Part shown: piece after piece, positions 20,664 to 63,531 of the stretch
How positions within the stretch are numbered: the first letter of the stretch is position 1
How the letters are laid out: the number at the start of each line of letters is the position of its first letter
Sequence record: NC_055709.1
From: Escherichia phage phiE142
DNA: 64,000 nt
Direction: 5' to 3' (one strand)
Made by a program: the position numbers and the translations under genes
Notes under the pieces: model-generated
Told to the model about the DNA's origin: nothing
Seen by the model: the letters and a program-made list of their open reading frames with translations, nothing else
The model's database searches: none

Positions 20664-21188
20664 TCATTTTAGCAAAATAAAATCAACTTGTTCTGCCAAT
20701 GAACGTCTAAACATTAATTGACAACTTCCGAGGATGAAATCAGGTGCTTCATAGACCGCGATGTAGTATCCTTTAGCTTTCAAGAGTTCAACATCCACCT
20801 GGTCATCAAACCATGCATAAACCGCGTCAACGCTTTCAAATCCAAAATAGAACCCTTGAGCCCAATCTTCACTCAATTCAAATGTGTGCTCAATTCTATA
20901 GTATCTTAAGATATTTTGTTCAAGGAGTTTGTCTTCATTTACAGTAGGACGATTAGGGACATTATAGTTGTCGCCGTGATGGTAGAAGTTACCTGAGATT
21001 ATTCCATGTTTATCAAGGAACTCCCATGTTTCTTCAGAGTTGTCGGTGCCCGACCAACCGTATGGCGAACGAGGTTCTTTATTCCAAGAGGTTTCCCAAA
21101 TTCTGACGGCTTTACCGTCTTCAATAGCAATTCCTGGTAATGATTCACGTTGAGTACAAAAACTACGTTCTACGCGGTAAACTAACAT
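20664..21188 (-). CDS. Hypothetical early protein (174 aa; T4 motB position)
   Basis: Positional only. Confidence 0.5.
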   Translation of the reverse strand: MLVYRVERSFCTQRESLPGIAIEDGKAVRIWETSWNKEPRSPYGWSGTDNSEETWEFLDKHGIISGNFYHHGDNYNVPNRPTVNEDKLLEQNILRYYRIEHTFELSEDWAQGFYFGFESVDAVYAWFDDQVDVELLKAKGYYIAVYEAPDFILGSCQLMFRRSLAEQVDFILLK

Positions 21189-21214
21189 ATTATTCTCCTC
21201 TGGTTGATATGGTT

Positions 21215-21243
21215 ATAATATCAAAACCAGAGGAGAAGTAAAC
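21215..21243 (-). promoter_or_regulatory. Sigma70-type early promoter-like element inside an inverted repeat
   Basis: Minus strand GTTTAC, 17 nt, TATTAT; 11-bp inverted repeat CTCCTCTGGTT/AACCAGAGGAG (21195-21235) brackets the -10 and contains the downstream ribosome-binding site. Confidence 0.5.
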
Positions 21244-26604: not shown

Positions 26605-27012
26605 TTAGGTTTCTCCTGTGGTTGATAAAGGTATAGTATCATCATCGGAAGAGTTTGTACACTAAAAATTCAACATTTTCAAATGAATGATTTTGTATAA
26701 TCGAGATAAAGGGATATATTCCAAGTCTTCAATTTCCACAATCTCAAATCTAGAGATACCTGAGACCATGTACTCTTGTTCAGATTGACATGTCATGATA
26801 GACCTCCGTTTAAAGATAAGTCTATCATAACATAAGAGGAGGGGTTGTAAACTACTTTTTAAGCTTTCCGACTAAAGGTCCATCAGGCCCAGGTTGTTCT
26901 AACATGAATGGTGATGCTTTAAGAAGCAATGTCAACCCTTTCACCATTCGATACCATATCTCAAAGTCCTTTTTCTTGGTTTCCACTAAGAATTGCTCTT
27001 TCAAATGCTCTT

Positions 27013-32153: not shown

Positions 32154-32216
32154 TTTAACTCCTTAGTTGATTTAATAGGACTACTATACTATAGTCCATC
32201 TATAATGTAAATAAGT

Positions 32217-33156: not shown

Positions 33157-33470
33157 ATTTCCTCACAGAACGCCCATTCAGCATGATAAACTGTAGCACC
33201 TTTAGTATTATTCATTTGAACTACGTCTACCGGAGAAATTACTCGATAGAGACGTGGTTCACCTCCATAAGAGCGTGCTGCTCGTCCTGCATAAATCTTT
33301 GCTAAACCGATATCTTCAGTAAAGAATACACGATTCAAGTTTTTCTTACGTCCGGTTTCAGACAGAACTCCTGTTTCTTCAGGAGGACAAAGCATGTTTT
33401 CGATGTTAGCTGAACTACTTGAACCGTGATAAAAAATCTTAAATTCTGCTTTACAATCGATGGTTTTCAT
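33153..33470 (-). CDS. Hypothetical protein (105 aa)
   Basis: ORF only. Confidence 0.5.
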   Translation of the reverse strand: MKTIDCKAEFKIFYHGSSSSANIENMLCPPEETGVLSETGRKKNLNRVFFTEDIGLAKIYAGRAARSYGGEPRLYRVISPVDVVQMNNTKGATVYHAEWAFCEEI

Positions 33471-33525
33471 TTTGTTCTCCAGTAGTTGATAGGTCTATAA
33501 TAACACAACTACTGGAGAAGTAAAC

Positions 33526-33900
33526 TTAAAAACGTAATTTAGATATATCTGCGTTGATTTCGTTTTGGTTTGCGTCGTATGCAATTAAACGAACCGCTTT
33601 AGATGGGTCATTCAATGCATAGAAATGATGGAACATTGCTCGAACGATATCACCATTTACGAGTTCTACCTGGATAGGAGAACCTTTTTCGAGTTGGAAA
33701 TGTTCATAAGCTTTAATGGTTCGCAGATAATCAAGTTTTTGATTTCCGGCTCCAACGATTTGTACGATACGTTTGCCCATGTTTTCCATACGAGATACAA
33801 TAGTTTTAGGAGCAAGAATAACGTAGGTTGCCAGCGGAGAAACTACTTCAACAGTTGTGTTTTCGGTGATTGCAGTAAAAATTGCTTGAGACATATTCAT
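33526..33900 (-). CDS. Hypothetical protein (124 aa)
   Basis: ORF with AAGAGGAAA ribosome-binding site and own promoter. Confidence 0.5.
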   Translation of the reverse strand: MNMSQAIFTAITENTTVEVVSPLATYVILAPKTIVSRMENMGKRIVQIVGAGNQKLDYLRTIKAYEHFQLEKGSPIQVELVNGDIVRAMFHHFYALNDPSKAVRLIAYDANQNEINADISKLRF

Positions 33901-33929
33901 AATGTTTTCCTCTTGGTTGGTGTAAGTAC

Positions 33930-33959
33930 ATCATATCATGACTAGAGGAAGATGTAAAC
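33930..33959 (-). promoter_or_regulatory. Sigma70-type early promoter-like element with spacer complementary to downstream ribosome-binding site
   Basis: Minus strand GTTTAC, 18 nt, TATGAT; spacer CTTCCTCT is complementary to AGAGGAA at 33908-33914. Confidence 0.5.
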
Positions 33960-33966
33960 CCCGAAA

Positions 33967-33990
33967 GGAGACCGAAGTCTCCTTTTTATT
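33967..33990. other. GC hairpin directly after the gene 41 stop
   Basis: GGAGACCGAAGTCTCC; T-tract follows on the plus strand, not on the minus strand. Confidence 0.5.
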
Positions 33991-35431
33991 AAAATTTTAA
34001 CTCATTGGCTAAGCTATCTAGGTCAGCACGTGTTGCTTTGGCTTTACCTACGCGTTCCGTACGATTCACCTCTGCCTGACGCATCTGAGCACCTGCGTTT
34101 TCATTTACCGTGTTAGGTGTGTTCATGCCTTCTTGCTCAATCTCAACCCATTTCTGATTGCCTTTACGTACACCCATCAGGAATTTATTCCACTTATTCT
34201 TATCACCATATCGTGATTTGATTTGTTTGATAAGTTGTTGTTCAGCTTGTGCAAGTTCTTCGGTTTCAATTACAGCCAACATGAAATCTGCCGTTGCTGG
34301 TAAACCTGCTGATTCTGCAATATCGCTCATGTTCATGTCTGAAGCATCCCATGCTGCACGTCCTACTTGAGCTGCAGTCCATAGAACTGTTTCAGATTCT
34401 ACTGCTAATGCACGAAGTTCTTCTGCGATAGCTTTAACTAATGTGTAACTATTTTCAGTGTAAACTCTGATACGACAAGACCCACAAATACCTAAGTAAT
34501 CGACTATGATTACAGACGGCACAAAGTTCTTCTTGAGTTTCAATTCATTAAGCAATGCACGGAATGTATTAGCATTAGCTCCACCAGTAGGATACTGTTT
34601 GACTACTAAACGTCCTAATGTTGATTTTGAACGCCATTTTTCCATCTTGGCTTTATATTCAGCATAAGATACGTTACCATCATCGATATCATCGAGTGAT
34701 ACGTCAAGCATGTTTGCATCTATACGCTTAGCACAAACTTCTTCAGCCATTTCCATGGAAATATAAAGAACATTATGTCCTGTTTGAAGATAATCTGCAG
34801 CAAGTGAACAAAGGCCTAAAGATTTACCAACGTTAACACCGGCCATTAAAACGTTCAGTGTACCTGTTTCAGCACCACCTTTGGTGATTTTATTCAGAAT
34901 GTTTAATTTGAACGGGACCTTACGTGCTTTATTTAGATAAGAAAGCCAGCGTGCTTCATAGTCTTCCATCCAGTCATGACCAACATAACTATCAAACGAA
35001 ATTGAAAGTGCTTGACGCATAATATCAGGAATAGCTCCTACGTCAGGCATTTTCTTGTTACGTTGTTCTGGAGGTAGTTCGGCATTAGTCTGAATCTCAA
35101 TGATTTTGGACGTGGCATTATACATCGCTTTTTGCTGGACATATTTCTCAGTTTCTTTAACCAACCATTCGTGGTCTTCAGGAGTATCAGCCAATTTTTC
35201 AATTAGGTCTGAAGTTCCTTTATACTCTACTTCGGTTAAAGAACTGTTATCTAAAGCCACCTTTAATGCATTAATGGATGGCATTGCGTTATATTCGTTA
35301 ACGTGGTTCTTTATAATTTTAAAGACATTTTTTGCCGGTCCACGCTCAAAATACTCAGAATCCATATAAGGCCAGACCTTAGAAAAATAAGCCTGGTCAT
35401 ATACGAGATGAGACAAAATAATTTCTACCAC
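33989..35431 (-). CDS. 41: Replicative DNA helicase gp41 (DnaB-like)
   Basis: 480 aa; Walker A GVNVGKS region, RecA-like core; T4 gp41 size and position. Confidence 0.9.
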   Translation of the reverse strand: MVEIILSHLVYDQAYFSKVWPYMDSEYFERGPAKNVFKIIKNHVNEYNAMPSINALKVALDNSSLTEVEYKGTSDLIEKLADTPEDHEWLVKETEKYVQQKAMYNATSKIIEIQTNAELPPEQRNKKMPDVGAIPDIMRQALSISFDSYVGHDWMEDYEARWLSYLNKARKVPFKLNILNKITKGGAETGTLNVLMAGVNVGKSLGLCSLAADYLQTGHNVLYISMEMAEEVCAKRIDANMLDVSLDDIDDGNVSYAEYKAKMEKWRSKSTLGRLVVKQYPTGGANANTFRALLNELKLKKNFVPSVIIVDYLGICGSCRIRVYTENSYTLVKAIAEELRALAVESETVLWTAAQVGRAAWDASDMNMSDIAESAGLPATADFMLAVIETEELAQAEQQLIKQIKSRYGDKNKWNKFLMGVRKGNQKWVEIEQEGMNTPNTVNENAGAQMRQAEVNRTERVGKAKATRADLDSLANELKF

Positions 35432-55295: not shown

Positions 55296-55554
55296 CTCTC
55301 AAGAGTTTGTATACTATTTTTTTAAGCATGAAAAGTAAGTAATTTGTATCACGTGGAGTAATATCAACACCCATATCAAAGATGCCTTTATGGATTGGGT
55401 ATTTGTTTTCGGTTGTATCGAAGCTGAAACTATTTCCATCACATCTAACAGTAATAGCATCTGTTAAAATGTCATACTCAATCCTAACAATTGAATCCCC
55501 AATTTTAACGTCGAGGTGTTTTTTGAATTTGATAAAATCTAATTCTTGGGCCAT
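55267..55554 (-). CDS. Hypothetical protein (95 aa)
   Basis: ORF only. Confidence 0.45.
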   Translation of the reverse strand: MAQELDFIKFKKHLDVKIGDSIVRIEYDILTDAITVRCDGNSFSFDTTENKYPIHKGIFDMGVDITPRDTNYLLFMLKKIVYKLLRDEYNSLVGY

Positions 55555-63500: not shown

Positions 63501-63531
63501 CATTATACTCCAACCATCCTTGGTTGTAAAC
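63501..63531 (-). repeat. 31-nt promoter cassette, copy 2 (identical to 22751-22781)
   Basis: Same ATTATACTCCAACCATCCTTGGTTGTAAACT block; minus strand GTTTAC, 18 nt, TATAAT. Confidence 0.6.

Follow-up and report, generated by a model that had tools for sequence, protein, structure and literature searches.

The short gap between gene 41 and RB69ORF041c raises the question of whether an early promoter can carry, in its own spacer, a switch on the translation of the gene that it drives. An earlier note on this DNA had proposed as much, on the grounds that the spacer is complementary to the downstream ribosome-binding site and that the same architecture recurs at an unrelated gene. We followed this up in the window, a 64,000-nt stretch of the Escherichia phage phiE142 genome (NC_055709.1). 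The window belongs to an RB69-like Mosigvirus; over the 1 kb surrounding the site, it shares 98.8% identity with RB69 and up to 99.5% with other Mosigvirus phages. Its early genes lie on the minus strand, and the promoter sits in the 88-nt gap from gene 41 to RB69ORF041c (hereafter ORF041c), in the same orientation as the downstream gene. The elements of the locus are these:

33989..35431, minus strand: gene 41, a DnaB-like replicative helicase (ORF; annotated gp41 in RB69), source of putative read-through transcripts
33964..33985, minus strand: terminator-like stem-loop AAAGGAGAC-UUCG-GUCUCCUUU, then CGGGGUUU; 9 bp, present in every fold
33959-33954, minus strand: -35 element GTTTAC, of the T4 early-promoter type (sequence check; GGGTTTACA invariant in 16 cassettes from three genera)
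33953-33936, minus strand: spacer of 18 nt, ATCTTCCTCTAGTCATGA, ending in an extended -10 TG at 33938-33937
33935-33930, minus strand: -10 hexamer TATGAT, preceded by TGn; the TG.TA..AT columns are invariant
33913-33907, minus strand: Shine-Dalgarno (SD) sequence AGAGGAA, the 3' arm of helix A
33900-33898, minus strand: start codon ATG of ORF041c; a second, in-frame AUG lies at 33894
33526..33900, minus strand: RB69ORF041c, 124 aa (ORF; PHROG 10668, function unknown)

A predicted early-promoter cassette at a variable locus

ORF041c is nearly restricted to Mosigvirus: 131 records match it at 95% identity or above, and two others at about 36%. In RB69 it is followed in the 3' direction by RB69ORF040c (105 aa; hereafter ORF040c), dmd, 61.4, imm.1, imm and sp. 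Neither ORF041c nor ORF040c has a Pfam match, and both fall into PHROGs families of unknown function. A search of IMG/VR with the ORF041c protein returned just two truncated, identical loci that added no diversity, and an Rfam search gave chance-level matches only. In T4, dmd comes directly after gene 41, and the site is therefore a variable, hyperplastic spot.

The promoter described earlier, GTTTAC, 18 nt, TATGAT before the 124-aa gene downstream of gene 41, is confirmed on the minus strand. A consensus scan reads it as TTTACA-17-TATGAT, with 10/12 matches and an extended -10. In an alignment of 16 orthologous cassettes (Mosigvirus, Kanagawavirus and one unclassified coliphage), the columns of GGGTTTACA and TG.TA..AT never vary, in contrast to most other intergenic positions. 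To judge by its sequence, then, this is a real and conserved T4-type sigma-70 early promoter. An A/T-rich UP element, a usual though not essential feature of T4 early promoters, is absent upstream of the -35; positions -40 to -60 consist of the G+C-rich terminator hairpin and CGGGG. From the position of the -10, transcription would start at about 33924-33922.

A gap of 4 nt separates the UUCG hairpin from the -35, and the annotation of several relatives lists this hairpin as a terminator (-13 kcal/mol, ARNOLD). Its stem covaries across genera, with A-U, G.U and G-C pairs in GGAGAC/GUCUCC, GGAGGC/GUCUCC and GGAGGC/GCCUCC, and its loop is invariant across the genera compared. The U tract that follows, CGGGGUUU, is poor, and the terminator is probably leaky; some read-through is plausible for this reason. 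A further supplier of read-through RNA could be a MotA-box middle-promoter motif upstream of uvsX (TGCTTTAATTTCTTCGCCGTATAAT, 37657-37633, minus strand), a motif with 19 occurrences in the window, where chance would give 5.95 ± 2.2.

The layout is that of a PeSL early-promoter cassette as described for the T4/PST group, with the consensus TTTACW-N17-TAYWAT, a stem-loop just upstream, and an SD and ATG at the 3' end (PMC4122927). At ORF041c, a stable stem-loop stands beside an early promoter, an SD and ATG close the 3' end, and the surroundings are a hyperplastic region in which ORFans are inserted, deleted or replaced between close relatives. Three relatives illustrate this. In 348Ecol098PP and TH58, both Mosigvirus (601-721 of the compared loci), ORF041c is missing and the promoter is fused to ORF040c, with the deletion junction inside the SD (..CCAAGAGGA|GAACAAAATG). 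LF82-2 (601-721 of the compared locus) is identical to the window through the -35 (GTTTACA) and then has an unrelated spacer before ORF040c, whose 3' hairpin arm is left without a partner. PeSLs are known as recombination sites, with crossovers between -10, SD and ATG (PMC2839356, PMC4122927).

The spacer/Shine-Dalgarno complementarity

The complementarity between spacer and ribosome-binding site exists, and it is shorter than had been proposed: 7 nt (TTCCTCT/AGAGGAA) rather than 8, because the leading C faces an A. The earlier coordinates were off by one, with CTTCCTCT lying at 33951-33944 rather than 33943-33950 and AGAGGAA at 33913-33907 rather than 33908-33914. We call the resulting pairing helix A; its 5' arm is

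33950-33944, minus strand: pyrimidine tract TTCCTCT

and is upstream of the start predicted at about 33923. With a loop of 28 nt, the 7-bp helix is worth -5.4 kcal/mol, or -9.9 kcal/mol with an inner helix, and it forms part of the minimum-free-energy fold of the window's sequence.

None of the comparisons with randomized sequence sets this pairing apart. The folding energy of the 70-nt cassette is -9.9 kcal/mol, compared with -10.6 ± 2.8 kcal/mol for dinucleotide shuffles (z = +0.26), and 115 of the 200 shuffles are as stable or more so. As a measure of occlusion we took the free energy of opening the translation initiation region (TIR, -14 to +3). Opening costs 5.4 kcal/mol in read-through RNA and 2.5 kcal/mol in promoter-proximal RNA, and shuffling the promoter segment gives 4.95 ± 1.9 kcal/mol (p = 0.37); with the terminator included, the costs are 4.1 and 2.75 kcal/mol, and the shuffles give 4.6 ± 1.9 kcal/mol (p = 0.47). 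Shuffles of the spacer only showed no excess occlusion for the window cassette (p = 0.69), and opening the SD alone takes 2.17 kcal/mol in read-through RNA versus 1.81 kcal/mol in proximal RNA (p = 0.15). Read-through TIR opening thus stays within 1 SD (standard deviation) of the shuffled controls (p = 0.15-0.69 in four null comparisons). By the same measure, the T4 hairpins of soc and gene 49, which are established by experiment, require 9.0 and 15.8 kcal/mol.

A swap control, in which promoters and TIRs were exchanged among the 17 early-promoter/gene pairs of the window, leads to the same result. A 7-nt run appears in 22% of the non-cognate pairs that involve the ORF041c promoter or TIR and in about 11% of all non-cognate pairs, so that about two cognate 7-nt matches are expected by chance among 17. 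The 7-nt match at ORF041c is not beyond chance.

Three further candidates at the site were considered and set aside. The inner helix AGUCAU/AUG-ACU is not a conserved element, as it needs the window's T at 33941, where RB69 has A and most relatives have G. Nearly full pairing of the SD, seen in a read-through RNA of 33975-33880, is an artefact in which the orphan 3' arm of the terminator (UCCUUU) pairs with the SD, since the effect disappears once the whole hairpin is included. A link to RegB cleavage, which acts on GGAG/GGAU (PMC3014915), was rejected: the SD AGAGGAA contains neither GGAG nor GGAU, and the TIR is thus not a canonical RegB target.

Helix A among relatives

Position 33941 is T, A or G among relatives. 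RB69 differs from the window by this one base (T to A), and helix A pairing is gone from its predicted fold. We examined ten Mosigvirus copies picked for divergence, and counted pairs over 8 distinct Mosigvirus sequences. In DCP548 and PNJ-9 the tract reads TCCCTCT, which breaks a U-A pair without compensation. Helix A pair counting found no compensatory changes; 3/9 pairs depart, only by unpaired cells. Pair-breaking cells among the 8 distinct sequences number 4 in helix A and 3 in an alternative helix, helix B, described below.

Further away, the picture is mixed. The one distant homologue examined, in Dhakavirus ABTNLsp5, keeps its SD (AAGAGGAAA), and the spacer of its proximal promoter (ACTACCACATGGACGTGG) holds no complement to that SD; the RB69-like promoter is left only as a decayed upstream copy. 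ATC(T)TCCTC-like tracts are found in orthologous promoters of Kanagawavirus and Dhakavirus. In the Kanagawavirus promoters, which precede ORF040c-like genes, the pyrimidine tract is kept right after the -35 and pairs over 5-7 bp with the phages' own SDs in shifted registers (TCTCC/GGAGA, ATCTCC/GGAGAT and UCCUCUA/UGGAGGA). Occlusion there is modest, at 4.3-6.5 versus 2.2-2.7 kcal/mol (nominal p = 0.03-0.056), and is stronger in the two Mosigvirus genomes without ORF041c (8-11 kcal/mol).

Taken together, the pairing at ORF041c is thermodynamically negligible in the window, and it is too weak, too chance-like and too poorly conserved for a regulatory switch. As a regulatory feature, the spacer/SD complementarity at this site is probably not real.

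An alternative helix over the start codons

In most other Mosigvirus copies, a second pairing competes for attention. Its two arms are

33943-33928, minus strand: 5' arm of helix B, AGUCAUG.UAUGAUGU, comprising the end of the spacer and the -10 plus 2 nt, upstream of the predicted start
33905-33889, minus strand: 3' arm of helix B, ACAUUAUG..UAUGUCU, spanning the start codon at 33900 and a second, in-frame AUG at 33894

Helix B consists of 15 bp, including four G.U pairs, and its 5' arm has the consensus AGRCAUG.UAUGAUGU. It is the minimum-free-energy structure in RB69, F31, AV117, KAW3E185, DCP548 and PNJ-9. In most Mosigvirus copies, those with G or A at 33941, TIR opening costs 5.4-7.1 kcal/mol in read-through RNA versus 1.8-3.6 kcal/mol in proximal RNA. 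Spacer shuffles for these copies give p = 0.03-0.13, values that come from nearly identical sequences and are not independent, and whole-promoter shuffles gave no significant excess for four relatives (p = 0.11-0.16). No compensatory change was found in helix B, which is broken in the window, F2, ST0 and PTK. Its sequence is ATG/CAT-rich and of low complexity, and the -10 and the two AUGs already place it under constraint. Any natural variant that breaks one of the helices, A or B, retains the other.

Strong hairpins at other early promoters

We surveyed the GTTTAC-type promoters of the window and scored early promoters of T4 (NC_000866) on the same scale. Three cassettes of the window behave quite differently from that of ORF041c:

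33468-33525, minus strand: ORF040c promoter, GTTTAC at 33525-33520 and TATTAT at 33502-33497
21186-21243, minus strand: early promoter of motB.2 (174 aa); TTCTCCTCTGGTT (21237-21225) is complementary to AACCAGAGGAGAA (21205-21193)
26791-26852, minus strand: promoter at 26852, before a 44-aa ORF upstream of modA; its -10 region pairs with GGUCUAUCAUG

At ORF040c, all 14 nt of the spacer arm TTCTCCAGTAGTTG (33519-33506) are complementary to the SD-containing CAACTACTGGAGAA (33488-33475), and TIR opening costs 19.9 kcal/mol in read-through RNA against 2.1 kcal/mol in proximal RNA (z = -5.05; p ≤ 0.003). The hairpin is kept, with an indel, in Dhakavirus ABTNLsp5. The corresponding values for motB.2 are 20.8 and 2.0 kcal/mol (z = -5.27; p ≤ 0.003). 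At 26852 it is the -10 region, UGUUAUGAUAGACU (26832-26819), that pairs with GGUCUAUCAUGACA (26804-26791) and covers the AUG, and the spacer also places CCCCUCC opposite GGAGG; opening costs 15.9 versus 3.8 kcal/mol (z = -3.56; p ≤ 0.003). T4 provides two more cases. In modB (start 13130), which has a -10/AUG pairing like that of 26852, opening costs 18.0 versus 2.4 kcal/mol (p = 0.007), and in mrh.2 (start 15232) it costs 10.4 versus 1.9 kcal/mol (p = 0.03).

Aligned with one another, the ORF040c and motB.2 stems differ by three compensatory double changes (A-U to U-A, G-C to C-G and A-U to G-C), which argues for selection in the strong cassettes. We considered whether these hairpins are intrinsic terminators and rejected this, as no U tract follows them. 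By analogy, the strong cassettes would be an early-promoter variant of the mechanism known from T4 e, soc, 49 and I-TevI.

These cases bear on the argument that recurrence of the architecture at unrelated genes implies selection. The ORF040c promoter is probably the first of the two cases that the earlier note had in mind. For the promoters at 33525, 21243 and 26852 the argument holds; for the ORF041c site, with z = +0.26 and no covariation, it fails, and recurrence elsewhere is no evidence for this site because the site does not share that support. The ORF041c cassette can be aligned with the strong cassettes, and its pyrimidine tract falls at the exact position of their 5' arms. At best, it may be a decayed relative or copy of them.

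Other early promoters of the window carry repeats of different kinds. Those with -35 positions 32212, 11252 and 10740 (minus strand) have a common inverted repeat, TAGGACTAT..TATAGTAGTCCTA, which straddles the -10 and leaves the SD untouched, and at 55314 the -10 of the promoter is flanked by GAGAGA/TCTCTC; all four are reminiscent of the subclass of PeSLs whose stem-loop overlaps the -10. The promoters with -35 positions 63531 and 22780 (minus strand), 40 kb apart, have identical 18-nt spacers, AACCAAGGATGGTTGGAG, within which lies the inverted repeat AACCA/TGGTT; the two may be duplicated or mobile promoter cassettes.

Weighing the explanations

We consider it probable that the site is an ordinary immediate-early PeSL promoter before the ORFan ORF041c and that the 7-nt match is incidental. 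The promoter would fire from about 33923 and yield a short, largely unstructured leader, and the upstream UUCG hairpin would end or stabilise most gene-41 transcripts. The spacer/SD match would be a by-product of low-complexity sequence, CU-rich on one side and GA-rich on the other, and of the ancestry of the cassette, because any CU-rich tract pairs with any GAGGA-type SD. On read-through RNA, the pairing would shift ribosome access by at most about 1 kcal/mol beyond the effect of any upstream sequence, so that no meaningful switch is to be expected at ORF041c, and we infer that the match has no effect in vivo. A weak but genuine promoter-embedded translational gate is somewhat unlikely by comparison. 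It would work through helix A or B in read-through RNA from gene 41 or the uvsX middle promoter, for which the MotA-box motif could be the source, and would cut ORF041c translation several-fold; ORF041c protein would be made mainly from its own immediate-early promoter, and the T at 33941 would be a slightly weakened allele. The geometry is suitable, with both 5' arms upstream of the predicted start, and for the majority of Mosigvirus copies opening the TIR takes 3.5-4 kcal/mol more in read-through RNA than in proximal RNA. A or G at 33941 keeps helix B pairing (as A-U or G.U), and the gate stays alive as a reading because no natural variant loses both helices. The orthologous cassettes of Kanagawavirus and of the ORF041c-less Mosigvirus genomes, at p = 0.003-0.056, and the strong versions next door also speak for it. 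Against this, whole-promoter shuffles give p = 0.11-0.47 for five variants, the cassette as a whole folds no better than its shuffles, and the energies are below that of the weakest established T4 example, soc. Every departure from the pairing breaks pairs and none is compensated, helix B is made of sequence that the -10 and the start codons already constrain, and the pairing is absent in the Dhakavirus homologue.

The remaining alternative moves the role to the DNA. The tract could tune RNA polymerase, or the ends of the cassette could serve as homology patches for PeSL-type recombination of ORFans, and the SD match would then be incidental to cassette homology. The junction inside the SD in 348Ecol098PP and TH58 and the switch after GTTTACA in LF82-2 suit this reading, as do the crossovers documented for PeSLs between -10, SD and ATG. 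Recombination, however, needs homology rather than spacer/SD complementarity, the compensatory changes of the strong sister cassettes indicate that selection acts on pairing, and the G.U pairs in PEi26 and in 348Ecol098PP/TH58 fit RNA rather than DNA. We regard a DNA-level role for the tract as quite improbable, and return to the ordinary promoter with an incidental match as the preferred explanation.

Wider reading

The ORF041c site itself is of minor importance, being a standard early promoter in a genome sequenced long ago, and the proposed switch is unsupported. The same tests that reject it, however, pick out three strong hairpins in the window and two in T4 (modB and mrh.2). A broader, doubtful reading, which we offer tentatively, is that T4-type phages have a family of immediate-early cassettes in which the spacer or the -10 is the 5' arm of a helix masking the SD or AUG. 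Small early genes would then be translated only from their own promoter and be silent on read-through (middle-mode) RNA, and ORF041c would be a weak two-helix member in which an occlusion of 3-4 kcal/mol is still functional. Such a family, if true, would be the mirror image of the late-gene gate of e, soc and 49. Should the strong cassettes be confirmed, the late-gene gate would also exist in reverse, limiting immediate-early proteins to the first minutes of infection, and the proteins concerned would include the products of ADP-ribosyltransferase-like and transcription-modifier genes. Confirmation would also add an RNA-level function to PeSL cassettes, so far seen as terminators and recombination sites.

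Comparison with known systems

The site has much in common with the PeSL cassettes of Arbiol et al. 2010 (PMC2839356) and Comeau et al. 2014 (PMC4122927), namely a stem-loop, a strong sigma-70-type early promoter, an SD and an ATG. Like PeSLs, it adjoins ORFans in a hyperplastic region, and the junctions of indels and swaps in relatives fall inside the cassette. The PeSL papers assign the stem-loops roles in termination or attenuation and in recombination, and do not discuss pairing between spacer and SD; RB69 was not among the phages analysed (PMC2839356, PMC4122927).

Hairpins that sequester the ribosome-binding site, with a 5' arm upstream of the start of the proximal promoter, are known from T4 e, soc, 49, I-TevI/II/III and segB and from Aeh1 mobE, and in the T4 promoter-in-hairpin gates only long transcripts are silenced (PMC3014915, PMC2988022). 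All documented gate genes are late genes with late promoters (TATAAATA) (PMC2988022). The logic of the T4 late-gene gate is that of the switch proposed for ORF041c, a helix masking the SD or AUG with its 5' arm upstream of the start. Its hairpins are far stronger, at 9.0 (soc) and 15.8 kcal/mol (gene 49) versus 4.1-5.4 kcal/mol at ORF041c, and ORF041c differs further in having an early promoter and an occlusion indistinguishable from chance. Early-promoter cases such as modB may already have been noted in the older T4 literature.

The closest comparison is with the strong cassettes of the window and of T4 (modB, mrh.2). These have the same type of promoter as ORF041c, a 5' arm right after GTTTAC and a purine-rich SD, and ORF041c and the strong cassettes align at 74% mean column identity. 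They differ in the pairing itself: the strong cassettes form perfect helices of 13-14 bp or a 14-bp -10/AUG helix, whereas ORF041c has 7 bp, and their TIRs open at 10-21 kcal/mol in read-through RNA versus about 2-4 kcal/mol in proximal RNA (p ≤ 0.03), in contrast to the z of +0.26 for the cassette of ORF041c.
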